Shown here piece after piece: positions 831-24,167 of a stretch of 64,000 nt of DNA. The notes below the pieces were generated by a model. The model was not told the origin of the DNA and searched no databases. It saw only the letters and a program-made list of their open reading frames with translations. Every line of letters begins with the position of its first letter. The stretch's first letter is position 1. Location: the sequence record NZ_CP035507.1, one strand, 5' to 3'. The stretch comes from a plasmid. A program made the translations under genes and the position numbers.

Positions 831-940
831 GTTCCGGCCCCGAAAGGGGGTGAAGGGGCGTCCCCTCCCACGGCTTTCGCAGCCCATGAAGGCCGCGCGG
901 GATGACGCGCGGACGAGACAGGCCAGGAGGCAAGAAACCA

Positions 941-2334: not shown

Positions 2335-3243
2335 TTGGGCGCGCATAGTTTTAATGCGCACGGTTATGCTTGGGGGGAAGTCGTGTCGAACGACAAGTCG
2401 GATCTACGCTGGGGAGTCGAGCAACGTCTCGAGTTCATCGAGTTCCGCCTGTTCTGGGAGGGGCACGTGAACCGCATTGATCTGATGGATCAATTCGGGG
2501 TTTCGGTGAACCAGGCATCAATGGACCTTAATCGCTATATCGGTTTTGCCCCCGAGAACATGGTCTATGACAAGAGTGCCCGGACCTACGTGCGCGGGCC
2601 AGGGTTCAAGCCACAGTTTCTAGAGCCTGACGCAAGCCGGTATCTGGCCCAGCTGCGGTCTGTAGCTGACGGTATCCTCGATAGAGAAGACTCTTGGATA
2701 GCCGACTTGCCGCCCTACGCAGCCTCGCCTACGCCCGTGCGTGGCGTTGACCCTATCACCCTCCGGTCAGTCGTTGGGGCAATCCGGCGTTCGGAGGCGA
2801 TCGAGGTCAAATATCAGTCCTTGTCGAACCCTGAGCCACGTTGGCGCTGGATTGCGCCCCATGCCATCGCTTTTGATGGCTTCAGGTGGCATGCGCGCGC
2901 CTATTGTCTCTCCGACGAAGTCTTCAAGGATTTCCTACTCTCTCGGATGATCGAAATTCGTGGGTGCACTGAGAGCGCCGCGGTGCCTTCGGCGGACGCG
3001 GATTGGAATGATAACGTGGTCCTCGAGATAGGCCCGCATCCTGATCTTTCCCCGACACAGGCAAAGGTCATTGCGCTCGACTACGGCATGGATGGGGGAA
3101 AGGCGGCGATCAAGGTTAGGCGCGCCCTTCTCTATTACGCATTGCGACGGCTTGGACTGGATACCGATCCAAGCGCGCGACCGCCCCAAGATCAGCAAAT
3201 CGTGCTGCTTAACCGAGAGACACTGGAGGCGACAGCGCCATGA
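2335..3243 (+). CDS. WYL-domain transcriptional regulator (BrxR/CapW-like; N-terminal wHTH then WYL)
   Basis: N-terminal LRWGVEQRLEFIEFRLFWEGHVNRIDLMDQFGVSVNQASMDL looks like an HTH; it sits immediately upstream of the defence operon. The true start may be GTG 2383. Confidence 0.65.
   Translation: MGAHSFNAHGYAWGEVVSNDKSDLRWGVEQRLEFIEFRLFWEGHVNRIDLMDQFGVSVNQASMDLNRYIGFAPENMVYDKSARTYVRGPGFKPQFLEPDASRYLAQLRSVADGILDREDSWIADLPPYAASPTPVRGVDPITLRSVVGAIRRSEAIEVKYQSLSNPEPRWRWIAPHAIAFDGFRWHARAYCLSDEVFKDFLLSRMIEIRGCTESAAVPSADADWNDNVVLEIGPHPDLSPTQAKVIALDYGMDGGKAAIKVRRALLYYALRRLGLDTDPSARPPQDQQIVLLNRETLEATAP
2339..2357. promoter_or_regulatory. Palindrome GCGCAT-N7-ATGCGC at the 5' end of the WYL regulator gene (candidate auto-operator)
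   Basis: Read directly from the sequence; it overlaps the annotated ATG 2335, and an alternative GTG start at 2383 is preceded by GGGGGAAG. Confidence 0.35.
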
Positions 3244-6272: not shown

Positions 6273-9200
6273 ATGGACCTGATCGGGATCGAAAACGAAG
6301 CCGAGTTCTTCCCGTCCGGGACCCTTTCGGACGTGCTGAAGGAGGAGCTTCAGGACATCACCGCCCGCTGGGCCGGTCTGGACCGGGCCGCCCATCCGGT
6401 CGAGCGGCTGGCCCGCGTCGCCGGCCCGACCGTCGAGGCGCTGCGCCAGGTGCGTAACAGTTCGGATCGGTCCCGGCGCGCCGAACTGGTCAGGGACGCG
6501 CACCACGACGTGCTGACCGCCCTCGGCTACGTGTGGCGGCGCGAGGGGGCCTACACGGCTCTCGACGGGGCGCCGGTAATCCCACTCGTGTCCCGCGCAG
6601 CAGATACCAGCGGTCGTGATGCGCTCTGGGTGATCGAGGCGCCGATCCCGGCCCCGGAGGACGAGGCGTCGGACCCGCTGGGGACCTGCTTCACGGAGGA
6701 GCAGCTTCCACCGGACCAGCGCGAGGCAGCCCTGACCGACCGGACCATCGAGTCCGTCCTCGCCGAGGGGGTGTTCGAGCTGTCCGACGGCCCTCGTCAC
6801 GTGCTTGTCCTCGGCCTGTCGCAGATCGTGCTGATCGACAAGAGGAAATGGCCGGCCCGGTCCGTCCTCCGGTTCGACCTTCAAGAAATCTTCGCCCGGG
6901 CGGACCGGGACACGCTCACCGTGATGGCCTGCCTGATCTCCCGAGAGGCGCGCGTCCCGGATCAGGGGGCGCCGATCTCGGATCGGCTCGAGGAGGAGGC
7001 GCAGCGGAACGCAAACGCAGTCACGACCTCCCTGAAGCGAACCGTCCGGGACGCGATCGAGCTGCTCGGCCAGGAGGTGATTGCGGTCACCGGCGGGAAG
7101 TACCCGTCCAGCTTCCCGGACCCGGCCCGGCGCGGGGTCTGGATCGACGGGCCGGAATTGTCGCGCGAATGCCTGCGTTACATGTACCGGCTGTTGTTCC
7201 TGTTCTACGCGGAGGCGAACCCCCGTCTGAACCTGCTCGACATGCGGAACCCGATCTACGCGACCGGATATTCGCTTGAGGCGCTGCGAGAACTGGAATC
7301 CGTTCCGCTCCGGACCACGGCGGACCGGGAGGGGACGTTCCTCTGGGAAAGCCTTCAGCGGACCCTCGACCTCCTCTACACTGGGCTCGACCTCGCCGAT
7401 GAGGAACGGGGGTCCGGTCTTCGCCTACCGGCCGTGAAGGTTTCCCTGCTCGACCCGGAGAGCACGCCACTCCTGAACGGGCTGCGGCTGCGGAACGAGG
7501 CAGTTCAACAGGTGATCCGCCTGCTGTCGCTCCGGTCCACCGGCAAGAGCACGGGCCGGATATCTTACGCGAAGCTTGGGATCGGCCAGTTGGGCGCGGT
7601 CTATGAGACCCTGATTTCGTTCACCGGAGTGGTCGCCAAGACCGACCTCATCGAGCTGAAACCCCGGAAGGGCCGGTCGAATGACGCGGCCGAGGACGGG
7701 GAGGAGGCCGAAGCCACCGAACCGGAAGAGGACGGCGAGGAGGACCTGTTCGGTGAGGAAGAGGCCGAACAGGAGGACGCGTTCCGCCGTGATAAGGTGG
7801 ACAAGCTGGCGCCCAGCTGGTTCGTCCCCCGCAGCCGGATCAACGAATTCGCCCCGGAAGAGATCGTCTTCAACGGGTCCGAGGCGCTCGTCTATGAAAA
7901 GGGGACCTTCATCTACCGCCTCGCCGGCCGGGACCGGGAGAAGTCCGCCTCCTACTACACGCCCGAACCCCTCGCCCGGTTGCTGGTCAAGCACGCGCTG
8001 ATGGAGCGGTGCCGGGACCTGACCGCCGATCAGCTTCTGGACCTGAAGATCCTCGAACCCGCGATGGGCTCTGCGGCCTTCCTCGTGGAGACCACGAACC
8101 AGCTGGCCGACCTCTACCTCGAGCGGAAACAGAAGGCGACGGGCCGGACCATCCCGCAGGAGGACATCGTCCTCGAGAAGCAGCGGGTCCGGGCCTACAT
8201 CGCAGACCGGAACTGCTTCGGGGTAGACCTCAACCCGATCGCCGTCGAACTGGGGGCGATCTCGCTGTGGCTGAACAGCCTGCACGGGAGCGAGTTCTCG
8301 CCCTGGTTCGGGGACCAGCTTCACGCCGGGAACTCCCTGATCGGCGCGCGCCGGGCCGCCTATGCCCCCGCGCTTCTCAGCGCCAAGGCGCAGGGCGACC
8401 TGTGGTTCAACGGGAAGCCCGATGAGATCGGCTGGCGCAAACGCCTGCCGGACGGGCACGTCTGGCAGTGGCTCCTCCCCGCCAAGGACATGGCGAACTT
8501 CGACAAGGACAAGTCGATCGCCCCCTTCGCGAAATCCGCGCAGGATCAGATCAAGGCGTGGCGCAAGGACGGCTTCTTCAAGAAGCTCGAACCCCACGAG
8601 ATCAAGCTGGTCCAGAAGCTCAGCCGGGTCGCCGAGGCGCTGTTCGAGCAGGTGGCCGAGGACCTCGCCAAGACGCGCGCAGCCGCGAATGACGAGATCA
8701 CGCTCTGGCCGAACAAGGTCATGCCGGGGAACAAGCGGCTAGACTTCCACGAAAAGGCTCGCCTGAACGCCCACCTGACCGGGGCTGACCACGCGACCAA
8801 CACGCTCCCCTACAAGCGGCTGAAAACAGCGATGGACGCGTGGTGCGCCCTCTGGCTCTGGCCGCTGGACAAGGCGGACCTTCTGCCCGGCCGGGCGGAG
8901 TTCCTTCAGGGGATGGCGATGATCCTTGAGGGCGGGTTCACCGCTGACGGATCGCTGGCCGCGCCGAGCGTGTCGGAGTTCGCCGATCCGGCCCCGGACT
9001 TCCTCGACCTGCTGGAACCCGACGCCCCCGCCCGCGACCTGTTCAAGGCCGCCGCCAAGCGGCAGGACGGGCTGTTCCGGGAAACGAATGTCGAGGCGCT
9101 GATCGAGAATTTCGACTGGCTGAAGACGGCGGTCGAGGTGGCCGAGCGCGAGCGCTTCGTGCATTTCGACCTGATCTTCGCCGACGTGATGAAGGCGCGC

Positions 9201-11225
9201 GGCGGCTTTGACGTCATCGTCGGAAACCCGCCCTGGGCCAAGCCCTCGTGGAACGAGGGGCTGGTGTTGGCGGATATCGACCCGCTTCATGCGGGGCTGT
9301 CGGCGTCGGACGCGAAGAAGGTCCTGCCCGAGGCGCTGCCTAAGGCCCCGCCCGTGCGGCGCGAGGGGAGGACGGTTCCGGCCGTCGAGGCGTTCCTACA
9401 GGATTTCGTGTCGACTCGGGGGGCGATGGAGGTAACTTCGTCCGAGGTGATGAACCCCTTTGCCGGGGGCGGGTCGAACAACCTCTATCGCTGCTTCATC
9501 GACCTGTCGTTCCGGTTGGTCGCGCAGCAGGGTTATGCGGCGCTGATCCATCAGGACGGGCATCTGGGCGACCCGAAGTCGGGGGTGTTCCGGCGGCACT
9601 GGTATGCGCGGATCGCGAAGCATTTCGAATTCATCAACCGGATGAAATCGCGGAACTTCATGGAGGTTGATCACAACGTCAGATTCAGCCTGAACATCTA
9701 TCGCGGCGAGCAGCGCGCGCCAGATTTCGAGAAATTCACTTACGCCTTCACAGCCGCACAGGTCGAAGATTCGTATGCGGATCAGGACGGGATCGGCCCG
9801 GTCCCCAGTATCAAGAATTCAGAAGGGAACTGGGACACCCGCGGCCATCGTGACCGCGTGATGCGGATCGACCGCGATGCGCTGGCGGTGATCCATGCCC
9901 TTTCTGAAGATGAGACGGTCGCGGTTGAAGAGGCCCGGTTCATTCAGCCTTATTCGGCCCGAACCCTGGACGTCTTCCGCCAGATGGCGCGGTTTCCAAA
10001 ACTCGACGCCGCGATCCCACGGATCGAGCGTTCGGTGAGCGCGGGTGCTGGAGAGCGGATAATTGAAATTCCGTTGTGGCAACAGTCGCCCCACTGGCAT
10101 GAAACGGCTGCCCAAAAAGACGGGACAATCCGGCGTGAGACTGGCTTCCGAGCAGCGGATCAGATGATACTTCAGGGACCGCTGTTTCACGTCGGGAACC
10201 CGATTTACAAGACGCCCAAGGCGATCTCACGGACAAATGCGGATTACCTCGTTGTCGACCTGACCACCGCGCCTGAAGACTATCTGCCGCGCACGAATTA
10301 CGGTCCGGCGCTGGAGATGAAAGATTACCGGAGCCGGATGACCCAGTGCCGCTGGGACCCGACGAAAGGCCACGCCGATTTCTATCGCGTGGCGTTTCGG
10401 AACATGATTGCTCTAAACGGAGAGCGCAGCTTGATCGGTGCGATGATCCCGCCGGGCGCGGCGCACATACACAAGGTTGAAAGCATCGCTTGTGCGGACG
10501 TTTCAGTTTCTCTCGCAATACACTCGTTCGCTTGTTCGATCCCGTTCGACTATTTGGTCAAGGCAAACGGACGCGGTGATCTTTTTGCCTCTGATATAGG
10601 CCGATGGCCGTTTCCAGAACTGGAGGATACCGCCAGGCACCGCTCCCTGCGACTCGCCTGTATCACCTCGGCCTACGCCGACCTCTGGAACTGCCACGCT
10701 ACCACACTTGATGTCCTCCCGTGGTCCTCCCCTGACCCCCGACTCCACCTCGAAGGTCCGGTCGAAGGCCCGGTCACTTGGGACCGAACCGCAGGCCTCC
10801 GGACCGAATTCGCCCGCCGCATGGCGCTTGTCGAGATTGACGTGCTGGTCGCGCAGGCGCTCGGCCTGACCCTCGACCAGTTGATCGAGATCTATCGGAT
10901 CTACTTCCCGGTCCTTCAGGAGAACGAGGCGGGCACCTGGTATGACCAGAAGGGCCGGATCGTCTGGACCTGCTCCAAGGGCCTGCCCGGCGTCGGCTGG
11001 CTCGACGACCGCGGCAAAAGCCCCGGCCGCGCCGCCTGGGAGCGTATCCTCGCCGACAACCCGACGGAACTGACCTGCACCGCCATCGACGACACGATGC
11101 CCGGCGGCCCCCGCACCGTCACCCGCCACTTCGTCGGCCCCTTCACCCGGTGCGACCGGATCGAGGACTACCGCCGCGCCTGGGCCCATTTCGAGCGGCT
11201 GAAATCCGAAGAGGCCGCTGAATGA
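6273..11225 (+). CDS. Very large N6-adenine DNA methyltransferase (gamma-class; DrmMI/PglX-like), 1650 aa
   Basis: Motif I ILEPAMGSAAFLVE (~nt 8050), motif IV VIVGNPPWAKP (~nt 9225), acidic low-complexity insert (EDGEEAEATEPEEDGEEDLFGEEEAEQED, ~nt 7690-7790); ATG 6273 lies 4 nt after the SNF2 stop. Confidence 0.75.
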   Translation: MDLIGIENEAEFFPSGTLSDVLKEELQDITARWAGLDRAAHPVERLARVAGPTVEALRQVRNSSDRSRRAELVRDAHHDVLTALGYVWRREGAYTALDGAPVIPLVSRAADTSGRDALWVIEAPIPAPEDEASDPLGTCFTEEQLPPDQREAALTDRTIESVLAEGVFELSDGPRHVLVLGLSQIVLIDKRKWPARSVLRFDLQEIFARADRDTLTVMACLISREARVPDQGAPISDRLEEEAQRNANAVTTSLKRTVRDAIELLGQEVIAVTGGKYPSSFPDPARRGVWIDGPELSRECLRYMYRLLFLFYAEANPRLNLLDMRNPIYATGYSLEALRELESVPLRTTADREGTFLWESLQRTLDLLYTGLDLADEERGSGLRLPAVKVSLLDPESTPLLNGLRLRNEAVQQVIRLLSLRSTGKSTGRISYAKLGIGQLGAVYETLISFTGVVAKTDLIELKPRKGRSNDAAEDGEEAEATEPEEDGEEDLFGEEEAEQEDAFRRDKVDKLAPSWFVPRSRINEFAPEEIVFNGSEALVYEKGTFIYRLAGRDREKSASYYTPEPLARLLVKHALMERCRDLTADQLLDLKILEPAMGSAAFLVETTNQLADLYLERKQKATGRTIPQEDIVLEKQRVRAYIADRNCFGVDLNPIAVELGAISLWLNSLHGSEFSPWFGDQLHAGNSLIGARRAAYAPALLSAKAQGDLWFNGKPDEIGWRKRLPDGHVWQWLLPAKDMANFDKDKSIAPFAKSAQDQIKAWRKDGFFKKLEPHEIKLVQKLSRVAEALFEQVAEDLAKTRAAANDEITLWPNKVMPGNKRLDFHEKARLNAHLTGADHATNTLPYKRLKTAMDAWCALWLWPLDKADLLPGRAEFLQGMAMILEGGFTADGSLAAPSVSEFADPAPDFLDLLEPDAPARDLFKAAAKRQDGLFRETNVEALIENFDWLKTAVEVAERERFVHFDLIFADVMKARGGFDVIVGNPPWAKPSWNEGLVLADIDPLHAGLSASDAKKVLPEALPKAPPVRREGRTVPAVEAFLQDFVSTRGAMEVTSSEVMNPFAGGGSNNLYRCFIDLSFRLVAQQGYAALIHQDGHLGDPKSGVFRRHWYARIAKHFEFINRMKSRNFMEVDHNVRFSLNIYRGEQRAPDFEKFTYAFTAAQVEDSYADQDGIGPVPSIKNSEGNWDTRGHRDRVMRIDRDALAVIHALSEDETVAVEEARFIQPYSARTLDVFRQMARFPKLDAAIPRIERSVSAGAGERIIEIPLWQQSPHWHETAAQKDGTIRRETGFRAADQMILQGPLFHVGNPIYKTPKAISRTNADYLVVDLTTAPEDYLPRTNYGPALEMKDYRSRMTQCRWDPTKGHADFYRVAFRNMIALNGERSLIGAMIPPGAAHIHKVESIACADVSVSLAIHSFACSIPFDYLVKANGRGDLFASDIGRWPFPELEDTARHRSLRLACITSAYADLWNCHATTLDVLPWSSPDPRLHLEGPVEGPVTWDRTAGLRTEFARRMALVEIDVLVAQALGLTLDQLIEIYRIYFPVLQENEAGTWYDQKGRIVWTCSKGLPGVGWLDDRGKSPGRAAWERILADNPTELTCTAIDDTMPGGPRTVTRHFVGPFTRCDRIEDYRRAWAHFERLKSEEAAE

Positions 11226-12070
11226 CGGGGCGGCAGGGCGAACTTCCCTTCGAGGAAGGGATCGACGCGATCCTGCGCGATACGGCGGACCGGATCGACG
11301 AGCTTTACCGCGCCGCCAGCGAACCAGGCGCCCGCCCGCCGTGGGTGGACCTGTTCGACAGGATCGCGGGTCAAACCCACATGGCCCCGTTCAACCTGAT
11401 GCTGGCCGACCTCCAGCGCCCGGGCGCGCGCTACATTGCGTTCCCCGACAAATGGCGGGAGATTGGACGGACGGTGAAACCGGCTTCGATCCCGATCGTC
11501 GTCCTGTGGCCGTTCTGCCCGGTGCGCTGCGCCTATGAACTGGCGGATACAACCGGGGACCCGGTCGACGACGCCCTTCTGGACAAGGTCTTCGGCGAGC
11601 CCGTCGAGGTTCGGGATGGCCTCATCGACCGTGTAGCGCGCCGCGCCCTGAAGGAGGACCGGATCGACGTGAAATCGGTGAGCCTCGCCTCTACCCTTGC
11701 CGGTGATGCCCGCGCGGTTCCGGTGGATCCGACGGCCAAGGGTAAACCCATAGGACCGGGCTGGGTCGTCCGGGTCAACTCGAACCTCAATACGAACGCG
11801 CAATTCACAACGCTCGTCCACGAACTGGGCCATGTCTACCTCGGCCATCTGGGCGGGAACGGGAAGAAGTGGCCGGATCGGCGGCCCCCTCAATTGGATG
11901 TACGGGAGTTCGAAGCAGAGGCGGTGACATACATCGTCTGCAAGCGATTTGGCTTGCAGTCGAACTCGGCTGAATATCTGAATGGTTATTTGAAAGAGAA
12001 AACCATTGAATTTGTAAGTCATTCTGCGATCGCACGGGCTGCGGGAAGGATTGAACAACATGCCCGTTAG
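11222..12070 (+). CDS. ImmA/IrrE-family (DUF955-like) HExxH zinc metallopeptidase
   Basis: TLVHELGHVYLGHLGG motif (~nt 11818-11850); ATGA overlap with the methyltransferase stop. Confidence 0.6.
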   Translation: MTGRQGELPFEEGIDAILRDTADRIDELYRAASEPGARPPWVDLFDRIAGQTHMAPFNLMLADLQRPGARYIAFPDKWREIGRTVKPASIPIVVLWPFCPVRCAYELADTTGDPVDDALLDKVFGEPVEVRDGLIDRVARRALKEDRIDVKSVSLASTLAGDARAVPVDPTAKGKPIGPGWVVRVNSNLNTNAQFTTLVHELGHVYLGHLGGNGKKWPDRRPPQLDVREFEAEAVTYIVCKRFGLQSNSAEYLNGYLKEKTIEFVSHSAIARAAGRIEQHAR

Positions 12071-12096
12071 TGCAGGTTTGGCGGAGTGATGACAGT

Positions 12097-15000
12097 ATGA
12101 ACCCGATCCTCCTCGCCCGTCATGTGCAGGACAGCCTGCGCGAACTGGTCCACACGACGCTGAACAGCACCAGCCCCGCCTTTGAGGGAATGGTGGACCG
12201 GTTCATCACCGAGCCCGCGAACTTCCTGAAGGGGCCGTGGATCTCGGTCGACATGCCGTTCCGGCAGATCGACGGGGCGAAGGAGGGGACGTGGGCGCAG
12301 CCCTTCCCGGAGGTTCCGCTGAAATTCGCGCCCTACCAGCACCAGACGGACGCCTTTGCCCGGCTGAGCGGGACGGCGATGCGCTCGACCCTGGTCGCGA
12401 CCGGGACCGGGTCGGGGAAAACTGAATCCTACCTGTGGCCGATCCTGGACCACTGTCGGCGGAACAAGGGGAAGCCCGGGATCAAGGCGATCCTGATCTA
12501 CCCGATGAACGCGCTGGCGACGGACCAGGCGCGCCGCATTGCGGATGCGCTGACCCGGATCCCGTCGCTGAACGGGGTGCGGGCCGGGATCTATGCGGAC
12601 GCGGAGCCGCAGAACCCGGCGCATGAGGTGACCGAGGACAGCGTGATCACGCATCGCGAGACGATGCGGAAGAACCCGCCGGACATCCTGCTCACGAACT
12701 ACAAGATGTTGGATTACCTGCTTCTACGCGGCCGGGACAAGCCGCTCTGGGCGCAGAACGACCCGGAAACGCTCCGGTTTCTGGTGGTCGACGAGATGCA
12801 CACCTTCGACGGGGCGCAGGGGGCGGACCTGGCCCTGCTGCTGCGCCGCCTGAAGTACCGGCTGAACACCCCGGAAGGACACCTGATCTGCGTGGGGTCG
12901 TCGGCAACGCTTGGCTCCGGGGAAGAGGCGGCGACGGACTTGCGCCAATACGCCGAGACAATCTTCGGCGAGCCGTTCGACGCGGGCGCGGTGGTCCGGG
13001 AGACCCGGAAATCCCCCAACGAGGTGTTCGGCGACGCGGAGTATCTGGACCGGCCGGATCCCGCCGATATCCACGGCGCCTTGAGAGCGGCGACGGAAAT
13101 GGACCAGCCGGGTGCCGCGCGACGGCTCGCTGTCTGTCTGTTCCCGGATCGGACCGACCCCGACCTCGCCTTTCTGGACACAGGTGATCCAGCGGACCCG
13201 GCTTGGCGGATCGCACTCGGGGACCGGCTTGTCCAGCATCACCTGTGTCAGCGGACCCTGAAGATCATCGCCGAGCACAAGGGACCCGCTTCGCTTGAGG
13301 CGATTGCGGCTGGGCTGGGACAAGTCCGGGTCCTTCGTGACTGGCCCGAGGCAGACCTGACTGCGCTCGCCGAGCTGGTCGTAGGGCTGGTCGCCTGGGC
13401 CCGGTCCGGGTCGGCTGAGAGCCCGCGCCCTCTATTCAACGTCAGGCTCCAGCTCTGGATCCGGGAGATGGCCCGGATGGTGACAACCCTGCCGCGACTC
13501 GAGGCGGGCGGGGTCCGTTCACAGATCGACCTTTTCCATGAAATGGACCTGGAAAGGGACCAGCTTTGCCGGGCCCTTCCGGTCGTGAACTGCAACCGGT
13601 GCGGGGCGACCGCGCATCTCGGACGGCAGGACGCCCGGTCGAAGTCGCTACATGCGGACCTGGAGCAGCTCTACCAGGAGTTCTTCGACGAGAACGGGGC
13701 GGACCGGATCCGGCTCATCTATCACGAGTCGATCGACCGGATGGTCCCGGCCAGCGGCGCCGGTGGTCAGATCGTGAAGGGGGTCCTGAACGCGGAAACG
13801 GTCGAGTTCACCCCGGCCGATCACAAGGATCTCGGCCCGGGACCGGCCTCACAGGTCTGGTTGTACAACCCGACCGACGCGAACGGACGGATCGACCGGA
13901 CCTGCCCTGCCTGCGGGCAGGCGCGCGGGCTTCTCCTCTTCGGGATGCGGGCGGCGCGTTTGACGACCGGCATCACCGGTACCCTTTACACCTCCGAACA
14001 GAACGAAGAGAGCCCCGAGGCAAAACCGCGCTTCCTGATGTTCTCGGATTCGGTTCAGGACGCGGCGCACCGGGCGGCGGTGGCCGAAACCCGGAACGCA
14101 CTGTCGGTCTACCAGAAGGCACTCTACGGGGCGCTTCGGTCCGCGGAAACGGGCGCGATGAGCCTGAAAGAGGTGATCGAGGACGTCCCGCGCGCCCAGT
14201 TGAACGACCTCGGCCCGGACGGGTTCACAGCGCTGTTCATCCCGAAGGAGTTGACCTGGCGGCGGCGCTACCGGGAGCTGGTCGAAAGCGGGGCCACCAT
14301 CACCGACCCGGTGTTTCTCGACCATATCCGGATCCGGCTCGGCTGGGAGTATTTCGTCGACCTGAGCTACAGGGCGCATTTCAACCACACGCTTGAATTG
14401 AACGGCATGGCGGCGGCGGATGTGCCCACGGATCTGCTGCGCCTGTCCGCGGAGCGGCTGGCACGGGAGCTGCGAAACGATCTGCCGGGCGCGCCGGAGT
14501 TCGACCCGGCCCTTCTGACCCGGCTCCTCGCCGGGGTGACGCAGCGGATGCGGCGGCAGGGGTCCGTGGCGCACCCCTATCTCGAGAGCGCGATCGCGAA
14601 CGGGAAAGGGAACTACGGGCTGAACTGGTACGCGGCCGCCATCCAGGTGGGCGTGGGGAAGACCGGTTCCCTGCCAAGCCCGGACAGCCGGCGGGGCCTC
14701 GCGCCGATCCCGGTGACCCTCGGCGCCGCCCCGACCGGGTTTGAGAAGATCACCCGGACCGGCCCCGCGAGCTGGTACCGGGACTGGCTGTTCCGGCTGA
14801 TCGGACCGTCCGACCTGCGCTACGGCGCGGACCCTGACGCGATCTATCCGCTCCTCCTGCGCCGACTTGAGGCCGACGACATCGTCCGACGCGTGAACGG
14901 GCCCGAGGGGCAGAACCGGCATGCCTGGCTTCTCGTGCCGGAACGGGTCACCGTCTCCACCGCGACGATCGGGCTGTGCTGCGACTTGTGCGGTCGGCGC

Positions 15001-18000
15001 GAGACCGGGCTTTCGGAAAACGCAGGTGTCCTGATCGGCTCCCCCTGTACGCGGATCGGTTGTGACGGGCACCTAGCAGCGGTTGAGCAGGCTGACCGGC
15101 CCGCCCTGCGCCGCGCCCTTCGCTCGGACCGAAACCACCGGGTGGTGGCGCGAGAACATACCGGCATCCTCGAAACGGATGAGCGGCTGCGGATCGAGAC
15201 CGGGTTCATCAAGAGCGAAACCCGCTGGGCCCCGAACCTGATCTCGGCCACTCCGACCCTGGAGATGGGGATCGATATCGGGGACCTGTCCACCCTGCTT
15301 CTGAGCTCGGTCCCCCCGGAGGAGGCGAATTACGTCCAGCGGATGGGGCGGAGCGGGCGGCGCGACGGGAACGCGCTGAACATTGTGCTGGCGAATGCGC
15401 GTGCCCATGACCTCCAGTTCTGGGAAGACCCAACCCCGATGCTGGCAGGCCAGGTCCGGCCGCCGGGCGTGTTCCTCGCGGCCGAAGAGGTGCTGCTTCG
15501 TCAGGTGACCGCCTATACCCTCGACGCCTATGTCGCGGCCACGAAGGAGAGCGGGGATTACGGGAAGGTCCGGGACGTGCTGAAACGCCGGGCCTCCGGC
15601 GCGACCGAAGGGTTCCCGGTTGAGTGGCTTGAACTGGTTCGCGAAACCGGGCCGGAACTGGCAGACCGGTTCCTGTCTGGCCTGCCGCAAGAGGTGCAGG
15701 ACCGGACGGATCTGGCCGACCGGATCCGATCTTACCTGACCGGAACGGACCCGAAATCGATCGGCTGGCGCGTCGGGGAGGCCTTCGACGGAGCTGCCAC
15801 CGAACGGGCCCGGCTGGTGGAAAAGCGCGAGGAAGCGACCAAGGAACTTGGTCGGCTCAAGAAGCGCCGGGCCGAGCTGACCGATGAAGAATATGAGCGT
15901 CGTGAACAGGACCTGACCCGGGACCGGACCGAGATCAACCGTCTGATCCGAAGCGGGATCGACGATGTGCCGGTGATCAAGTTTCTGACCGACAAGGGAA
16001 TCTTGCCGAACTACGCCTTCCCCGAAGAAGGGGTGAAGCTGACGTCGATCCTGTCGCGGCGCAACGATGGCGCGACAGCACGGGACGAGGACGGGCTTCT
16101 GCACGTCGAATACTCCCGGCCCGCCAGCTCCGCCCTGTCGGAATTCGCGCCGGGCCAGTTCTTCTACGCCAACGGGCGCCAGGTGCAGATCGACCGGATC
16201 GAGATCGGCAAGGAAGATTTGGCCCGCTGGACCTTTTGCCCAGCCTGTTCGCATGTCGCGCACCGGATTGAGGGCGCCGAGACCCGCACCTGCCCGCAAT
16301 GCGGGGACGAGATGTGGTCGGATAGCGGCTCCGCGCATGACGTGGTCCAGCTCAAGTCTGTCATCGCGATCGACAGCGAGGAAAAGGCGGCGATCCGGGA
16401 CGGGGATCAGCGGGACCAGCGTCAGTTCGACCGGGTTCTCATGCCCTTCCATGGACCGGAAGACATCGCCGCCTCCTGGTTCACCAGCCGGGAGAACGGT
16501 GCCCCGTTCGGGTTTGAATTCCTGCCCAGTTGCACGTTCCGCGACTTCAACTTCGGGACGAAGTCCACCCTCCCCGGGCCGCGGATCGCGGGCGAGCGTC
16601 GGCCCGCACAGCCGTTCCGGATCTGTCGCCACTGCGGGTCCCTTCAGGGTCCCCCACGCGGCGAGGACGATCGCGGAACGCACCCGCCGAACTGTCTTGT
16701 CATGCGGGATGAGGACCTGCTTCGCGAGCAGTGGGAAACCGGCGTGTTCCTGATGCGAAAGTTCGACACGGAGGCGATCCGGATCGTGATCCCGGTGGTC
16801 GGGGACGCGGATGATGATGACCTGAAAAGCTTCGTCGCGGCGATCAACCTCGGGATGCGGCGTCACTTCGCGGGGAAGGTCGACCATATCCGGTCCACCA
16901 TCTTCCAGGCGCAGCTGAACGGAATGACCACGGTTCGCAGCCTTTACCTCTACGATTCCGTGCCGGGCGGATCAGGCTATCTGCGTCAGATCGCGGAACA
17001 TCCGAACACGATGCGCGAGGTTGTCAGCCGCGCGGCGGAGGCGCTCCGGGACTGCCCCTGCAACCAGGAGCCGGACCGGAACGGGTGCTTCCGCTGTGTG
17101 AAGCCCTACCGGTCACAGTTCGGGCCCGGCGAGCCAGATCGGGACCGGGCGCGGCAGATGATGGAGGCGATCCTCGAGAAATGGGACAGCCTGACCCAGA
17201 CCGAGACCGGGATCGACGCGTCAATTCGGGGCGCGCTGGTCGAGAGCGTGCTGGAGAAGCGGTTGCTGCGCGCCCTTTCCGGCTTCTATGGAGACGGGGC
17301 GCTGACGCCGCAGGTGCTGCCGGGTGGACGGCGTGGGTTCGTCCTGCGCGCGGGTCGGCCGGACGCGCCGCGCCTCTGGACGATCGAGCCGCAGGTGCAG
17401 ATTGACGCGCGGTTCCGGGGCCTGCCCCGCAAGCGTGTCGACTTCCTGCTCACCCCGGTTGGCCGCAGCAGCGGCCTGCCGATCGTCATCGAAATGGACG
17501 GGATCGAGTATCACGCGGGTACGGTCGCCCAGGACCTGTTGGACCGGATGTTGATGATCAGGTCCGGGCAGGTGCGGGTCTGGACCCTGTCCTGGCGCGA
17601 TCTTGACCCGGAGGACAAGGGCTACCTGAACCCGCTCTCTGAAACCGCCCTCGGGGCGCAGATGACCGGGCCCCTTGGGCGTGCGCTGGCGCATCCGCTG
17701 CTCGCCCCACATGCAGAGGCGGTCCGGACGCTTCAGACAATCAGCACGCTCGATGCACTGAGGCGCCTTCTGGACGGGGATGCGGACGGGGATGCGGTGA
17801 TCCGGTCCGTCCTGATCCGGGGCCTCGTGAAGGGCGGTCGCCCCATCGACCAGCTTCCCCGGCAGGCGGCCCTTTCAGAGGCGGGGCGCCTGTTTCTCTC
17901 CGGTACACAGGCGGTGGAACAGGTCGGGGTCGGGGCGCTCGATCTCTATCTGGCCTGTGAGAAGATCTCGCCCACCGAATGGGCCCAATCGGTTCGCGAC

Positions 18001-18498
18001 CTTCGTCTTCTCCTGCGTTCGGTCCTGCCCGATCCGGGCGAGGTTCCGGCCGCGAAAACCCTCTACACGGAGGCCTGGCGCGGGCTCTGGCGGATCGTGA
18101 ACCTGTTCCAGGGCGTGCGTGGTCTTCATGTCGAGTTCGACGGGCTGGACACGTTGGCCCCACCCGATATGGTGGAACCCGTCGACCAGGGGGACCAGGG
18201 CCCCGGCTTGGCCGCTTGGGAAGAGGTGCGGGCGCTGTGCGACGACGCGTTCCACCCGTTGATTGACGCGTTGATCGCGGCCGAGGCGCCCGGGCCGGAC
18301 CACTTCGGGGACGATCTGGTTGCGGGCGGACGCGTGGTGGGCGCTATGGAATTCGGATGGTCGGATACCCGCGTCGCGGTTGCCGAAACATCCCTTGAGG
18401 GGGTCGGCTGGGCGCTGATCCCGTTTGATCCGGAAACCGATCAGATGGGGGAGACGGTCTCGCGAATTATCACGGCCCTTCAGGAGGCACGGACATGA
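12097..18498 (+). CDS. Giant DExH helicase / DUF1998-like Zn module / DUF559(Vsr-like) nuclease fusion protein (DrmA+DrmB-like), ~2133 aa
   Basis: Motif I ATGTGSGKT (~12415), DEMH, SAT, helicase-C LEMGIDIGDL...QRMGRSGRRDG (~15250-15370), CPACS...CPQCG Zn ribbon (~16240-16310), CPCNQEPDRNGCFRC (~17055-17100), DUF559-like VDFLL...IVIEMDGIEYHAG (~17440-17520). An alternative GTG start at 12070 overlaps the preceding stop. Confidence 0.75.
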   Translation: MNPILLARHVQDSLRELVHTTLNSTSPAFEGMVDRFITEPANFLKGPWISVDMPFRQIDGAKEGTWAQPFPEVPLKFAPYQHQTDAFARLSGTAMRSTLVATGTGSGKTESYLWPILDHCRRNKGKPGIKAILIYPMNALATDQARRIADALTRIPSLNGVRAGIYADAEPQNPAHEVTEDSVITHRETMRKNPPDILLTNYKMLDYLLLRGRDKPLWAQNDPETLRFLVVDEMHTFDGAQGADLALLLRRLKYRLNTPEGHLICVGSSATLGSGEEAATDLRQYAETIFGEPFDAGAVVRETRKSPNEVFGDAEYLDRPDPADIHGALRAATEMDQPGAARRLAVCLFPDRTDPDLAFLDTGDPADPAWRIALGDRLVQHHLCQRTLKIIAEHKGPASLEAIAAGLGQVRVLRDWPEADLTALAELVVGLVAWARSGSAESPRPLFNVRLQLWIREMARMVTTLPRLEAGGVRSQIDLFHEMDLERDQLCRALPVVNCNRCGATAHLGRQDARSKSLHADLEQLYQEFFDENGADRIRLIYHESIDRMVPASGAGGQIVKGVLNAETVEFTPADHKDLGPGPASQVWLYNPTDANGRIDRTCPACGQARGLLLFGMRAARLTTGITGTLYTSEQNEESPEAKPRFLMFSDSVQDAAHRAAVAETRNALSVYQKALYGALRSAETGAMSLKEVIEDVPRAQLNDLGPDGFTALFIPKELTWRRRYRELVESGATITDPVFLDHIRIRLGWEYFVDLSYRAHFNHTLELNGMAAADVPTDLLRLSAERLARELRNDLPGAPEFDPALLTRLLAGVTQRMRRQGSVAHPYLESAIANGKGNYGLNWYAAAIQVGVGKTGSLPSPDSRRGLAPIPVTLGAAPTGFEKITRTGPASWYRDWLFRLIGPSDLRYGADPDAIYPLLLRRLEADDIVRRVNGPEGQNRHAWLLVPERVTVSTATIGLCCDLCGRRETGLSENAGVLIGSPCTRIGCDGHLAAVEQADRPALRRALRSDRNHRVVAREHTGILETDERLRIETGFIKSETRWAPNLISATPTLEMGIDIGDLSTLLLSSVPPEEANYVQRMGRSGRRDGNALNIVLANARAHDLQFWEDPTPMLAGQVRPPGVFLAAEEVLLRQVTAYTLDAYVAATKESGDYGKVRDVLKRRASGATEGFPVEWLELVRETGPELADRFLSGLPQEVQDRTDLADRIRSYLTGTDPKSIGWRVGEAFDGAATERARLVEKREEATKELGRLKKRRAELTDEEYERREQDLTRDRTEINRLIRSGIDDVPVIKFLTDKGILPNYAFPEEGVKLTSILSRRNDGATARDEDGLLHVEYSRPASSALSEFAPGQFFYANGRQVQIDRIEIGKEDLARWTFCPACSHVAHRIEGAETRTCPQCGDEMWSDSGSAHDVVQLKSVIAIDSEEKAAIRDGDQRDQRQFDRVLMPFHGPEDIAASWFTSRENGAPFGFEFLPSCTFRDFNFGTKSTLPGPRIAGERRPAQPFRICRHCGSLQGPPRGEDDRGTHPPNCLVMRDEDLLREQWETGVFLMRKFDTEAIRIVIPVVGDADDDDLKSFVAAINLGMRRHFAGKVDHIRSTIFQAQLNGMTTVRSLYLYDSVPGGSGYLRQIAEHPNTMREVVSRAAEALRDCPCNQEPDRNGCFRCVKPYRSQFGPGEPDRDRARQMMEAILEKWDSLTQTETGIDASIRGALVESVLEKRLLRALSGFYGDGALTPQVLPGGRRGFVLRAGRPDAPRLWTIEPQVQIDARFRGLPRKRVDFLLTPVGRSSGLPIVIEMDGIEYHAGTVAQDLLDRMLMIRSGQVRVWTLSWRDLDPEDKGYLNPLSETALGAQMTGPLGRALAHPLLAPHAEAVRTLQTISTLDALRRLLDGDADGDAVIRSVLIRGLVKGGRPIDQLPRQAALSEAGRLFLSGTQAVEQVGVGALDLYLACEKISPTEWAQSVRDLRLLLRSVLPDPGEVPAAKTLYTEAWRGLWRIVNLFQGVRGLHVEFDGLDTLAPPDMVEPVDQGDQGPGLAAWEEVRALCDDAFHPLIDALIAAEAPGPDHFGDDLVAGGRVVGAMEFGWSDTRVAVAETSLEGVGWALIPFDPETDQMGETVSRIITALQEART

Positions 18499-20666
18499 CA
18501 GACACAATGACCAAGCGGGTCTCCTACGACATCGGCTGCATGAAGAGCCTGCGGAAACTGCCGGACCGGGTTGCGCTCCGGTTCATGGACCTGATGACCA
18601 AGTATATGTCGGACCCGTCCGCGAATGGGCTGAACCTGGAAACGGTGGAAGGATCGAGGGACAGCTCGATCAAGTCCATGCGGGTCGACCAGGGGTATCG
18701 GGCCATCGCCTTCGAGGTCGGCCGCGACATCATGTTCGTGCATGTCAACGAGCACGACAAGGCCTACCGCTGGGCGGCAGGGCGCCGGGTCAAGCTCGAC
18801 CCGGAAACGAACCGGATCCGGGTGATTGAGGAGGTGGACGCGGTTGTCGAACCGGTGGCGACGCCGGATACCTACGCTCCTCGCCTCTTCGACGAGGTGA
18901 CGGATGCAAGGCTGCGCGCCCTCGGCGTGCCGGAGGAGGAGCTGACGGCCGTTCGTCAGATCCCCACGATCGAGGCGCTGGAAGGCGCGGAGGACCGGTT
19001 CGATCCGCTCACCTATCAGATCCTTTACGCGGTCGCGGCCGGTTATGCGGATGAGGAAATCCAGTCCCTGACCGGGGTCGGCGCGGAACCGGACGCGGAA
19101 CCGCAGCAGCCCGCCGCGGAGCTGACCTTCGGAAAGCTGATCGAGACCGAGCAGAGCCGCCAGACCATCTTCATTCCCGAAAGCGAGGAGGAGCTGCGCC
19201 GCGTTTTCGAGGAGGGGCTTGAGGGCTGGCGCGTGTTCCTGCACCCCGAACAGCGCAAGATCGCCTACCGGGACTACAACGGGCCGGTTCTGGTCCGGGG
19301 CGGGGCTGGTACCGGCAAGACTGTCGTCGCGATGCACCGGGCCAAGCACCTTGCAGACCAGATCAAAAACGATCCGACCCGATCCGGCCAGCGGGTCCTT
19401 CTGACCACCTTCACGACCAGCCTCGCGCATGACATCGAGGCGAACCTCCGGACCCTGTGCCCTGACCATCTGGACGCCCGCCCGCCCCGGATCGAGGTGA
19501 TCAACCTCGACCGCTGGGTCTCTCAGTTCCTCAAGCGCAAGAGCTTCGCCCGCGAGGTCGCCTTCTTCGGCGAGGCGCGGGACCGGCTGGACCAGGTGTG
19601 GAAGGAGGTCTTCGATGATCACGAGCTGCCCGAGGGGCTGTCTGAGCCGTTCGTTCGCGCGGAATGGGCGCAGATCGTCCAGGCGAAGGGGCTGACCGAT
19701 CAGAAGGGATACCTGAAGGCGTCCCGGGCCGGCCGGGGCACCCCTCTCGACCGCAAGAAGCGGGCGGTGCTGTGGGACATCTTCGCCGATTACCGGGCCC
19801 GGCTGATCAGCGAAGGGCTCGCGGAGCCTGACGACGCTTACCGCGAGGCGACCGAGATCCTGACCTCCGAAGCGCCGAACCTGCCCTACAGCGCGGTCAT
19901 CGTCGATGAGGCGCAGGACATGGGCGAACAGGCGTTCCGGCTGATCCGCGCGATCATGCCCGAGACCCCGGCGGGGGACCGGAACTCCCTCTTCATCGTG
20001 GGCGACGCGCATCAGCGGATCTATGGGCGGCGGGCCGCCATGTCCGCCTGCGGGATCAACGTGCGCGGCCGCTCGAAGCGCCTCCGCCTGAACTACCGGA
20101 CCACGCAGGAGATCCGGGCCTGGGCGGTCTCGGTTCTCGAGGGGGTCAGCGTTGACGATCTTGATGAAGGGACGGATACCCTACGCGGTTATGTCAGCCT
20201 CATGCGCGGGGCCGCCCCCGAGCTGGTCGGGTGCCGGACAGAGGCGGAGGAGCTGGACGGGCTGGTGGCCTGGGTCCGGGCCCTGCCGCCCGACCAGATC
20301 CGCCTCTCCGACATCGGGGTCCTGTGCGCGCGTCGCGCCGACGCGGACCGGGTTCAGGCGGCGCTCCGCGCGGCCGGTATCGAGACGGTGATGCTCCAGT
20401 CCGGTGCGGACGACCGGTCCGTTCCGGGGATTCGGATCACCACGATGCACCGGGCGAAGGGGCTCGAGTTCTTCGCCGTGGCGATCCCCTTCCTGTCCGA
20501 GGCGGCCTTCCCGCCACCGGGTGCGCTCCGGGCCGCCGTGGATCCGGCAGATAAGGAGGACATTATCATGCAGTACCGGTCCCTCCTGCATGTCGCTGCG
20601 ACCCGGGCGAAAAAAGCTCTCCGCATTTCATGGTCGGGGACGCCAACTGGCATTTTCACGGTCTGA
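18495..20666 (+). CDS. UvrD-like SF1 helicase with an ~120-aa N-terminal accessory domain
   Basis: Walker A VLVRGGAGTGKTVVAMHRA (~19300), VIVDEAQDM, C-terminal ITTMHRAKGLEF; ATGA overlap with the upstream giant gene. Confidence 0.75.
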   Translation: MTDTMTKRVSYDIGCMKSLRKLPDRVALRFMDLMTKYMSDPSANGLNLETVEGSRDSSIKSMRVDQGYRAIAFEVGRDIMFVHVNEHDKAYRWAAGRRVKLDPETNRIRVIEEVDAVVEPVATPDTYAPRLFDEVTDARLRALGVPEEELTAVRQIPTIEALEGAEDRFDPLTYQILYAVAAGYADEEIQSLTGVGAEPDAEPQQPAAELTFGKLIETEQSRQTIFIPESEEELRRVFEEGLEGWRVFLHPEQRKIAYRDYNGPVLVRGGAGTGKTVVAMHRAKHLADQIKNDPTRSGQRVLLTTFTTSLAHDIEANLRTLCPDHLDARPPRIEVINLDRWVSQFLKRKSFAREVAFFGEARDRLDQVWKEVFDDHELPEGLSEPFVRAEWAQIVQAKGLTDQKGYLKASRAGRGTPLDRKKRAVLWDIFADYRARLISEGLAEPDDAYREATEILTSEAPNLPYSAVIVDEAQDMGEQAFRLIRAIMPETPAGDRNSLFIVGDAHQRIYGRRAAMSACGINVRGRSKRLRLNYRTTQEIRAWAVSVLEGVSVDDLDEGTDTLRGYVSLMRGAAPELVGCRTEAEELDGLVAWVRALPPDQIRLSDIGVLCARRADADRVQAALRAAGIETVMLQSGADDRSVPGIRITTMHRAKGLEFFAVAIPFLSEAAFPPPGALRAAVDPADKEDIIMQYRSLLHVAATRAKKALRISWSGTPTGIFTV

Positions 20667-20685: not shown

Positions 20686-21786
20686 TCAAACCATGAGCCA
20701 ATACCGCGTATGGCGCCGCTCCCCGGTACGGCTAAGCGCGCCCATCTCCACCAGGTCCTGCAGGTCCCGCGTTGTGGTGGCGCGTGACGTGCCGGTTATG
20801 GCGATGTAGTTCTCGGCGCTGAGGCCGCCTTTGAACCCGTCGGGCCCCTCGCGGAACATGCGCTCAATCACCTTGGCTTGTCGCTCGTTCAGTCGATCAC
20901 GGAACTGGTCGTAGAACTTCGCCTTGGCGATGAAGAACGCGACCCGTGTCAGCGTTACCTGCTGCGCCTTCAGAACGATCTCGGCGAACCAGATCAGCCA
21001 GCCGGTTACGTCCAGCGTCTTCTGGTGGGTTTCGAGCTGGTCGTAGTAGGCTTTCCGGTCCCGTTCGATCGTATAGGCCAGCGCGATTAGGCTCGGCTGG
21101 CCGATGTTCTGCGCAAGGGACTTTTCCGCCAAGGCGCGGCCGAGGCGACCATTGCCGTCCTCGAAGGGATGGATGCTTTCGAACCAGAGGTGCCCAAGCG
21201 CCGCGCGGGTTAGTGCTGGCAGGGGCGTTGTGCCGTCTGGCGCCGTTCGGTTGAACCAGTCGACGAACACGTCCATCTCGCCCTGGACCTGCGCGGAGGG
21301 CGGCGCCTCGAAATGCACCGTCGGCCGGTCGATGCGACCGGAGACGATCTGCATCGCGTCGGCATGTCGCCGGTAGGCCCCGATGGTTTCGAGCCCGCGG
21401 TCATGTGCCAGGAGCATCCCGTGCCATCGGCTGAGGGTCTCGTGGGTCAGAGGCGCGCCGTAGGTCGAGTAGACGTCGACCATCATCTCTGCGACGCCCT
21501 GTTCCTTGGGCTTCGATGGCGCACCGTCAGTGATCAGACCGAATTGCCGCCGGAGGGAGGATTGCACACTGCCCCTGTCTAGCACCTCGCCTTCGATGGC
21601 GCTTGTCCGCATCGCCTCTTCACTCAGAAGTTCGATGCGCAGGCGGTCGCGTTCATTGCCGGTCACATGGCGGACGGCGCCGAGAATCTCGCCGGATGAC
21701 AGTAGGAACCGCCGCTCGAGAGGTTCGATGGCAGCGCTGTCATAGACGAAATTCGGCCAGTCGGGTTGATTCCAGTTCCAGCGCAT
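20686..21786 (-). CDS. Fic/DOC family protein with a C-terminal wHTH
   Basis: HPFEDGNGRLGRAL motif (~21140-21185 on the minus strand). Confidence 0.85.
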   Translation of the reverse strand: MRWNWNQPDWPNFVYDSAAIEPLERRFLLSSGEILGAVRHVTGNERDRLRIELLSEEAMRTSAIEGEVLDRGSVQSSLRRQFGLITDGAPSKPKEQGVAEMMVDVYSTYGAPLTHETLSRWHGMLLAHDRGLETIGAYRRHADAMQIVSGRIDRPTVHFEAPPSAQVQGEMDVFVDWFNRTAPDGTTPLPALTRAALGHLWFESIHPFEDGNGRLGRALAEKSLAQNIGQPSLIALAYTIERDRKAYYDQLETHQKTLDVTGWLIWFAEIVLKAQQVTLTRVAFFIAKAKFYDQFRDRLNERQAKVIERMFREGPDGFKGGLSAENYIAITGTSRATTTRDLQDLVEMGALSRTGERRHTRYWLMV

Positions 21787-23606: not shown

Positions 23607-24167
23607 GGGGGCGGACCTCTCACAAGAATAGTGAAACGCAGCAAAGATGTTTCATCGTCGCTAACCCCCGCGCGCGACGGCGTCAAGCAGAAGACGGGAT
23701 GCGGGCTGCCTCAGGCGGAATGCGGGGTCCATGGTGCATCGCGCAGGGAGCGAAAAGCACCACGCTCGTGACACCTGACGTTCTCCCGTCCGCGCGATGC
23801 GGTCCCCAGATGACGCGCGACATGCCACATCGGCCATAGTGCGCGACGCAGGAAGCGTGACGCATACCGCACGGGACGTGGACCATCGGGCACCACGCGC
23901 GATGCGGGCAGCACGGGCCATCTGACACTTGCCAGAAGCCGTGCTGCAGGGCGCGCAAGACGCAGTCCAAAGGACGCGATGCGCGGTGCAGGCAACGCGG
24001 GACGCGTTGCATTGAGCGCCTTGCGCGCTGCATTTGCCAAAGGACGTCAAATCGGCCCGAGAGGCCGATTTTCTACATTGAGTACAAGCCCTTGGTGCCT
24101 TCTCCGCTTGTGCTGGGAGAAGGCGGGCTTGTACGAAGTTGGCAAGAAATAGGAACGTATACTTCAC
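23607..24167. promoter_or_regulatory. Divergent parA/mobC control region with repeated GCGCGAYG(C)GG-type motifs and two hairpins (24049-24071 AAATCGGCCcgagaGGCCGATTT; 24082-24134 GTACAAGCCC...GGGCTTGTAC); candidate oriT/centromere
   Basis: Read directly from the sequence; the 60-170-aa ORFs here are low-complexity artefacts. Confidence 0.4.

Follow-up and report, generated by a model that had tools for sequence, protein, structure and literature searches.

To which system does a single 2133-amino-acid (aa) polypeptide that joins a helicase to a putative nuclease belong, and is its effector built in? The question is raised by positions 12097 to 18498 of a stretch of 64,000 nucleotides (nt) of plasmid DNA (sequence record NZ_CP035507.1), and this whole stretch is called the window below. 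A preliminary description, made from the letters alone, had taken the protein for a fusion of the helicase and DUF1998 parts of DISARM with a restriction-like nuclease. We conclude, at a probability of roughly 85%, that this open reading frame (ORF) is the gene for ArmC, effector protein of a system of ARMADA type II (armA-armB-armC-armD) on a conjugative alphaproteobacterial plasmid, working by the mechanism proposed below. ARMADA type II was defined by Bell et al. (2025) in the Koonin/Nobrega/Beisel preprint (PMC12458937), and what is cited from it here refers to the portions of its text at hand.

The armC gene and its operon

In the published definition, the ARMADA II array consists of the BrxHII-like SNF2 protein ArmA, the PglX-like ArmB, the YprA-like ArmC and the GajB-like UvrD helicase ArmD, and ArmC itself combines a YprA-like helicase, OB-CON-DUF1998 and a predicted active C-terminal Vsr-type nuclease, often with more, inactivated nuclease domains (PMC12458937). 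We compared the window by BLASTP with the validated ARMADA II of Escherichia coli O157:H7 Sakai SpLE6/OI-172. Over residues 1-1836 the window ArmC runs collinear with its E. coli O157 counterpart and shares 33% identity with it (885 bits), and the neighbouring products are 38% identical to E. coli ArmA over the full length, 35% identical to ArmB (875 bits) and 39% identical to ArmD over residues 6-722 (E 4e-160). E. coli DruE, which is encoded adjacent to ARMADA, matches the window ArmC only locally (119 and 89 bits); judged by sequence, the window protein is closer to the validated ArmC than to DruE or DrmA.

12097..18498, plus strand: armC, YprA/MrfA-type helicase-nuclease of 2133 aa, from the ORF and its translation (ATG at 12097, stop at 18498)
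3317..6268, plus strand: armA, SNF2/BrxHII-like helicase (PADLOC DrmD 2.6e-99, BrxHII; start as in the RefSeq annotation of pMM259)
6273..11225, plus strand: armB, PglX/type-IIG-like N6-adenine methyltransferase of 1650 aa (Pfam Eco57I, N6_Mtase; GNPPW motif)
18495..20666, plus strand: armD, UvrD/GajB-like helicase with an extra N-terminal domain (Pfam UvrD-helicase, UvrD_C; PADLOC GajB)
2383..3243, plus strand: WYL-domain protein 5' of armA (Pfam WYL, E 2.6e-10; annotated WYL in pMM259)

In the co-directional armA-armB-armC-armD operon armC comes third, and the operon is part of a tightly packed cluster of the same orientation that runs from the WYL gene through armA, armB, a gene for a 282-aa metallopeptidase-like protein, armC and armD. 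The A-B-C-D order recurs among 80 related loci as far as the length of their flanks allows it to be read. The locus therefore shows what ARMADA II is recognised by, namely helicase and OB-CON-DUF1998 in one ORF, the relationship to ArmC, the operon order (kept despite the one extra gene between armB and armC) and a Vsr-type domain, whose activity is predicted. Because the same architecture defines the published ArmC, a widespread family (Bell et al. 2025), the fusion of helicase, DUF1998 and Vsr parts is not the unusual arrangement it had seemed, and the locus opens no new class of system.

The E. coli systems (NCTC 12900, ATCC 8739 and O157 EDL933/Sakai; PMC12458937, and the portions at hand of 10.1101/2025.09.22.677730) resemble that of the window in the length of ArmC (2113 aa, compared with 2133 here), in the gene order with overlapping stop and start codons, and in the Walker A/B residues, the five Zn clusters and the invariant residues of the Vsr domain. 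They differ in that the two ArmC proteins share only a third of their residues and are scarcely alignable over the last ~300, and in that the E. coli system lies in a tRNA-integrated island with Zorya and Druantia, whereas the window copy lies on a conjugative alphaproteobacterial plasmid. The metallopeptidase gene between armB and armC and the WYL gene upstream also set the window operon apart. The WYL protein is a probable transcriptional regulator; WYL matches occur upstream of armA in the related loci L003, L030 and L049, and in L029 downstream of armD on the opposite strand. ArmD of ARMADA II is described as a RelE-like N-terminal domain fused to a UvrD/GajB-like helicase (PMC12458937); the N-terminal ~120 residues of the window ArmD align with E. 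coli ArmD, and Pfam gives no match there.

That armC is one intact gene, as had been proposed, is borne out by the ORF, its translation and full-length orthologues. An in-frame GTG at 12070, 5' of the ATG, overlaps the stop of the preceding gene; the start at 12097 is supported because homologues begin with MNPILL. A public protein collection holds the identical 2133-aa protein and more than 100 homologues of 2115-2170 aa, and RefSeq WP_018065926.1, from Martelella mediterranea plasmid pMM259, is 99.5% identical to the window ArmC. Moreover, a continuous ORF of more than 1900 aa was found in 78 of the 80 related genomic loci, which come from many phyla, most of these ORFs being 2036-2256 aa long. 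An artificial fusion of two ORFs by sequencing error, which the preliminary description had listed as a possible refutation, is ruled out by these 78 uninterrupted orthologues, and armC is therefore not an assembly fusion.

Many long ORFs, of up to 604 aa, also lie on the minus strand or in other frames of the armC region (for example 15073-16887, minus strand); these overlapping ORFs are the usual by-product of 66% G+C, and nothing supports them as genes.

Helicase core and zinc modules

Every motif named in the preliminary description is present in the ArmC translation where it had been placed. In RecA1 these are GSGKT at aa 105-109 (nt 12409-12423), DEMH at 232-235 (nt 12790-12801) and SAT at 269-271 (nt 12901-12909); motifs V and VI are LEMGIDIGDL at aa 1055-1064 and QRMGRSGRR at aa 1081-1089; further downstream come CPAC...CPQC, that is C1381/C1384/C1399/C1402 (nt 16237-16302), and CPCNQEPDRNGCFRC, spanning C1653-C1667 (nt 17053-17097). 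The spacer after CPACS needs correction, from 16 to 13 residues. The region divides as follows.

12319..12996 (aa ~75-300), plus strand: RecA1 lobe (Pfam DEAD at 81-273, E 1e-20)
13009..13941 (aa ~305-615), plus strand: insertion 1, between RecA1 and RecA2; a helical domain, then a beta-rich Zn module, C499/C502/C603/C606
13954..14106 (aa ~620-670), plus strand: putative first part of RecA2, RFLMFSDSVQDAAHRA, with conserved F649, S650, D651, S652, Q654, D655 and A656
14119..15111 (aa ~675-1005), plus strand: insertion 2, inside RecA2; a helical/winged-helix domain ending in a Zn module, C962/C965/C984/C989
15124..15486 (aa ~1010-1130), plus strand: rest of RecA2 (Pfam Helicase_C at 1015-1089; motifs V and VI)
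15499..15981 (aa ~1135-1295), plus strand: putative helical, coiled-coil-like region with charged heptad-like repeats in its sequence
15994..17166 (aa ~1300-1690), plus strand: OB-CON-MZB (DUF1998) module (Pfam MZB PF09369; OB and CON labels after PMC12458937)

Conservation was assessed in an alignment of 80 orthologues, about 30-98% identical to the window ArmC, and the figures below refer to this alignment unless another sample is named. K108, D232, E233, H235 and S269-T271 of RecA1 are invariant, as are E1056, Q1081, R1085 and R1088 of RecA2. K108 and D232 align with K110 and D234 of E. coli ArmC, where the substitutions K110A and D234N abolished phage defence (PMC12458937). The helicase core had been thought to be split by one large insertion; the core is indeed interrupted, but by two insertions, one between RecA1 and RecA2 and the other inside RecA2, as seen in Pfam and in an AlphaFold2 model of aa 290-1015 with a pLDDT (predicted local distance difference test) value of 80.6. 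In published ArmC a 'BrxA-like' helical domain, a beta-barrel ZBM and a MarR-like domain with a Zn module are inserted after RecA1 or into RecA2 (PMC12458937). Insertion 1 coincides in position with the 'BrxA-like' domain and the 'beta-barrel ZBM', and aa ~1135-1295 with the helical extension described as following RecA2 (PMC12458937). The stretch between the insertions, aa ~620-670, probably represents the first RecA2 element (RFLMFSDSVQDA, ~646-657), and its pLDDT is low in the partial model because the remaining RecA2 lobe was excluded from that model.

Two Zn-ribbon/DUF1998-like modules had been reported. One is a genuine DUF1998, Pfam MZB PF09369 (the Zn-binding domain of MrfA, formerly DUF1998) matching residues 1582-1668 with 42.9 bits against a cut-off of 24.2 (E 8e-11), and its four cysteines C1653/C1655/C1664/C1667 are 100% conserved; the other, CPAC...CPQC, is a Zn module in the OB region and not a second DUF1998. 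Zn modules other than DUF1998 are thus present, but the alignment holds five conserved Cys/His clusters rather than two. Conservation is 100% for C499/C502/C603/C606, for C1381/C1384/C1399/C1402 and for C1510/C1513/C1533, the last three belonging to a Zn site C1510/C1513/H1529/C1533 at nt 16624-16695 whose H1529 is invariant in 9 diverse sequences; for C962/C965/C984/C989 it is 75-94%. With Pfam DEAD, Helicase_C and MZB in one ORF, the protein is a DExH helicase of superfamily 2 (SF2) and of the MrfA/YprA type with a true MZB/DUF1998, as first supposed. MrfA/YprA of Bacillus subtilis (6znp) has the same RecA1/RecA2 motifs and MZB Cys4; it is, however, a DNA-repair protein of 751 aa, in which both large insertions of ArmC, its additional Zn modules and its fused nuclease are missing.

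A predicted nuclease at the C-terminus

17209..17616 (aa 1705-1840), plus strand: Vsr/DUF559-type PD-(D/E)xK nuclease domain, predicted, with candidate site E1720, D1782, D1801, H1806, D1835
17632..18495 (aa 1846-2133), plus strand: C-terminal ~290 aa, folded (model pLDDT mostly >80), without conserved catalytic residues

The motifs of the nuclease region are VDFLL with D1782 (nt 17440), IEMDGIEYH at 1798-1806 and RVWTLSWRDL at 1827-1836. All 80 orthologues, which span many phyla, have the same residue at E1720, Q1766, D1782, D1801, G1802, H1806, D1813, R1817, W1829 and D1835, so that the candidate catalytic residues are invariant; the Glu of IVIEMDG (E1799), to which the preliminary description had pointed, is Phe in 62 of the 80. 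An AlphaFold2 model of the C-terminal region (pLDDT 81.5) was compared with known folds, and its portion at aa ~1715-1840 matched 3hrl, 3r3p and 1cw0, the very three structures that Steczkiewicz et al. (PMC3424549), surveying PD-(D/E)xK enzymes, give for their clade 'VSR, DUF559, DUF2726'. PvuRts1I (7.1) and BsoBI (7.0), then AbaSI and RAP domains, followed; no PLD was among the fold matches of this model. D1782 lies on a core strand of the model, D1801 where the next strand ends and H1806 where the helix after it begins. The model has the features of the clade: the restriction-endonuclease-like alpha-beta-beta-beta-alpha-beta core, the Asp on a core strand and the His that opens the next helix.

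Aligned by hhalign with E. coli Vsr, a profile of 39 ArmC domains placed D1782 on D51, D1801 on H64, G1802 on G65 and H1806 on H69, which is the catalytic register. The domain shares with the Vsr/DUF559/I-Bth0305I clade (1cw0, 3hrl, 3r3p) its predicted fold, and its Asp on the second core strand and its xDGxxxH segment are in register with D51 and with the THGxxxH (H64, H69) of Vsr. It departs from the clade in having ~35 more residues between the first helix and the core strands, and in being fused to a helicase of 1700 aa, whereas the enzymes of the Vsr clade stand alone. The fold match and the invariant candidate residues together indicate that the idea of a built-in nuclease effector was right, its activity being predicted from the model; the absence of a separate PLD protein, which belonged to that idea, also agrees with published ArmC (PMC12458937).

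After RVWTLSWRDL 297 residues remain. Past residue ~1850, conservation of at least 90% is confined to Trp, Leu, Pro and Asn positions, and whole-model fold searches assigned no fold to aa 1846-2133. The extreme C-terminus of ArmC is described as carrying inactivated EEP and Vsr domains, frequent and not obligatory (PMC12458937); the conservation pattern of the last ~290 residues of the window protein fits domains that are inactivated.

Proposed mechanism

E. coli ARMADA II gives direct, non-abortive protection for which all four genes are needed (PMC12458937); in the study of enterohaemorrhagic E. coli the need for ArmD was weaker (10.1101/2025.09.22.677730). DruE, the closest characterised relative of ArmC, works as a helicase with 3'-5' polarity and, driven by ATP, as a nuclease when the DNA is tailed or forked (Loeff et al. 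2026; Hu et al. 2026). By our model, ArmC would load onto single-stranded or forked invading DNA, translocate 3'-to-5' with ATP as MrfA and DruE do, and pass the strand on to the Vsr-type endonuclease that it carries itself; this Mg2+-dependent enzyme would nick or degrade the DNA, and the outcome would be direct, non-abortive immunity. By analogy with DISARM and BREX, ArmB and the SNF2 motor ArmA most likely mark resident DNA by N6-adenine methylation, aid target choice, or both, and ArmD would add one more helicase activity. Degenerate, non-catalytic domains with a structural or regulatory role probably make up the last ~290 residues of ArmC.

Alternative readings

Several observations weigh against ArmC as a nuclease effector acting in this way. 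By hhalign, Vsr is matched weakly and over no more than 27 columns (probability 18%, P 0.0013), and ArmC has an Asp, D1801, where Vsr has His64. Neither Pfam DUF559 (PF04480) nor Vsr (PF03852) matched even at E<=10 when the C-terminal 452, 187 and 265 residues and the C-terminus of E. coli ArmC were scanned, so the earlier assignment to DUF559 stands as a structural clade match of the AlphaFold model and falls as membership by hidden Markov model (HMM). The profile of 39 diverse ArmC nuclease domains retrieved no solved nuclease from the PDB sequences, its matches being chance ones only (mitoribosomal mS29, E about 1). Moreover, the portions at hand of the ARMADA literature (PMC12458937; 10.1101/2025.09.22.677730) hold no report of ArmC nuclease activity or of a mutant in the Vsr domain, and the cleavage step is therefore a prediction. 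What ArmA, ArmB and ArmD do, and what kind of DNA is the trigger, is drawn by analogy only, and the operon in the window includes an extra gene, of 282 aa. Searches with the C-terminus alone were likewise unproductive: phmmer found a chance SOD match only among PDB sequences, and a word-indexed homology search gave 35 close fragments and no free-standing nuclease relatives.

These facts leave some room for a protein that is a helicase or translocase only. Its Vsr-like domain would then be a degenerate module that binds DNA or interacts with proteins, and cleavage would fall to another protein or be absent. We consider this unlikely. Such a degenerate module has been put forward for Druantia I and II, one study could dispense with the PLD domains of DruE under its conditions, and both the failure of sequence HMMs to recognise the domain and the want of a biochemical demonstration in the ARMADA literature at hand speak for it. 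Against it stand nine polar or aromatic residues, including the equivalents of Vsr D51 and H69, that are invariant in 80 orthologues at about 30% identity, while the following ~290 residues have no conserved polar residues; invariance within the Vsr-type domain and none beyond it fits an active site under selection. In addition, Pfam and PADLOC scans found no second nuclease encoded in the core operon. The invariant E1720, D1782, D1801, H1806, D1813, R1817, W1829 and D1835 form a ready list for mutagenesis of the predicted ArmC nuclease.

Identity with DruE of Druantia, which is the call to be expected from defence finders built on 2023 models, seems to us very improbable. The best PADLOC matches are indeed DruE3 (E 2e-97) and DruE1 (2e-95), and among solved structures the closest relative is 9tu7, a helicase chain of 2108 aa (E 9e-46) that is probably a DruE, to judge by its length and depositor name. 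DruE of Druantia type III is also alike in its YprA/MrfA-type SF2 helicase, its domains embedded in RecA2, its Zn modules, OB and DUF1998/MZB and a C-terminal nuclease, and an ATP-driven, helicase-coupled nuclease has been demonstrated for it (Loeff et al. 2026; Hu et al. 2026). However, both the DruE models and E. coli DruE are matched in parts only, namely RecA1 and RecA2-to-MZB, whereas the alignment with E. coli ArmC extends over residues 1 to 1836. The modelled C-terminus points to a Vsr fold and not to the tandem PLD of Druantia III DruE, with whose C-terminus there is no alignment. The gene has no druH, druA-D or druM/F/G neighbours; armA, armB and armD flank it instead, in place of the DruE partner DruH. 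The PADLOC 2.0 models, moreover, are older than ARMADA. As to annotation, the window protein, its 99.5% RefSeq copy and hundreds of relatives are labelled just 'DEAD/DEAH box helicase', and the label due to this protein is ArmC of ARMADA type II.

The view with which the analysis began, a fused DrmA-DrmB of DISARM class 1 in which the nuclease replaces DrmC, now finds little credence. It draws on neighbours that are DrmD-like (PADLOC 2.6e-99; NCBIfam DISARM_DrmD 350 bits) and DrmMI-like (5e-61), and on the parallel between helicase plus DUF1998 and DrmA plus DrmB; DISARM likewise has a YprA-type helicase, an OB-CON-DUF1998 canopy, an SNF2 helicase and an N6-adenine methyltransferase. Yet the DrmA models match only ~80 residues of RecA2 (E 1e-13), NCBIfam DISARM_DrmAL reaches 18.8 bits against a cut-off of 999, and the 350 bits of DISARM_DrmD compare with a cut-off of 610. 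The methyltransferase is nearer to IIG/PglX-like models (E 2e-186) than to DrmMI. In DISARM the helicase and DUF1998 are on separate proteins, the nuclease DrmC is a separate PLD enzyme and ArmD is lacking, whereas the arm operon of the window contains the conserved fourth gene armD and, by Pfam, no PLD gene. The published YprA phylogeny also groups ARMADA with Druantia and not with DISARM (PMC12458937).

A large housekeeping DNA-repair helicase of MrfA/YprA or Lhr type can be practically dismissed, because the NCBIfam matches that suggest it (DECH_helic, ligase-associated DEXH helicase and Lhr-like models, alongside PDB matches to Lhr, 5v9x, and MrfA/YprA, 6znp) are far under cut-off and confined to RecA1, the gene lies on a conjugative plasmid beside methyltransferase and UvrD-like genes and near a short prokaryotic Argonaute (pAgo) system and a Fic protein, and the orthologous E. 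coli operon gives phage resistance (PMC12458937; 10.1101/2025.09.22.677730).

The armB-armC junction

11222..12070, plus strand: ImmA/IrrE (M78)-like metallopeptidase gene, 282 aa, with HELGH (Pfam Peptidase_M78, E 3.6e-4, below cut-off)

The sole non-standard feature of the window ARMADA system is a clean insertion of 878 bp (nt 11219-12096) relative to pMM259 and Tabrizicola soli, whose loci are otherwise ~90-95% identical. It carries the 282-aa gene, which occupies the equivalent position in Alloyangia pacifica and Neoroseomonas lacus. Homologues of its product are annotated ImmA/IrrE, and the most remote carry an ArdC N-terminal domain (ArdcN PF08401). The junction is also filled elsewhere: about 25 of about 55 loci that have both armB and armC contain 0.7-9 kb of extra, mostly co-directional genes between them, encoding SIR2 (SIR2_2), GmrSD, AbiEi with AbiEii, an AAA ATPase (AAA_21) with HNH, a protein kinase (Pkinase) or Schlafen/AlbA (SLFN_AlbA_2). 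Loci with a filled junction are the following.

L015, L019, L022, L027, L035, L037, L039, L041-L044, L046
L049, L050, L069, L071-L073, L076, L079, L080, L082

The junction resembles a slot of changing content within the operon, taken up by accessory or embedded defence genes; the portions of PMC12458937 at hand, which describe a strict gene order, do not mention such a slot. That it is a dedicated slot for accessory cargo, its genes functionally coupled to ARMADA, is a tentative and rather doubtful proposal, the alternative being that the junction genes merely hitch-hike. If the genes were coupled, the 282-aa peptidase could be a protease switch or sensor, or could act like ArdC, sparing the plasmid's own transferred strand from ArmC.

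Remote homologues of the peptidase (36% identity) were also seen in a conserved operon in L085 (7705-14125), L086 and L087, with genes for VWA, an unknown protein, M78, cpYpsA(SLOG), a further unknown protein, SIR2 and a trypsin-like protease, and a divergent WYL regulator adjoining. This operon looks like an uncharacterised conflict system.

Plasmid context

2-574, plus strand: Toprim/DUF7146 protein, upstream of the ARMADA operon
902-1873, plus strand: DUF2493/YspA-SLOG protein, upstream of the ARMADA operon
20686-21786, minus strand: Fic/DOC protein with N-terminal DUF4172 (PADLOC SoFic, E 8e-41), directly downstream of armD on the opposite strand
22887-23606, minus strand: ParA, plasmid backbone
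24168-24770: MobC
24757-27108: relaxase
27026-29071: T4 coupling protein
29196-30692 and 30641-31933, minus strand: short pAgo system (PADLOC pAgo class I, E 6e-166) with an upstream DUF4365/REase-APAZ partner (Aga_REase-PNTD, E 6e-146)

The flanking MobC, relaxase, T4 coupling protein and ParA match conjugative plasmids of Rhodobacterales and Hyphomicrobiales, and the backbone at 22887-29071 shares 92% identity with Martelella mediterranea pMM259 and 80-89% with many Rhodobacterales plasmids. Past the coupling protein pMM259 diverges, and the pAgo module is not common to both. The short pAgo and its DUF4365-APAZ partner look like a SPARDA-type defence system, and since ARMADA, the short pAgo and the SoFic-like protein stand together in the window, we regard the region as a plasmid-borne defence island. 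ARMADA II was originally described in tRNA-integrated islands; the window shows it complete and beside the short pAgo, on a conjugative plasmid (MOBQ/MPF_T) found in Alphaproteobacteria from sea and soil. In pMM259 the Toprim and SLOG genes come after a large methyltransferase-helicase fusion, an arrangement typical of leading-region/anti-restriction genes.

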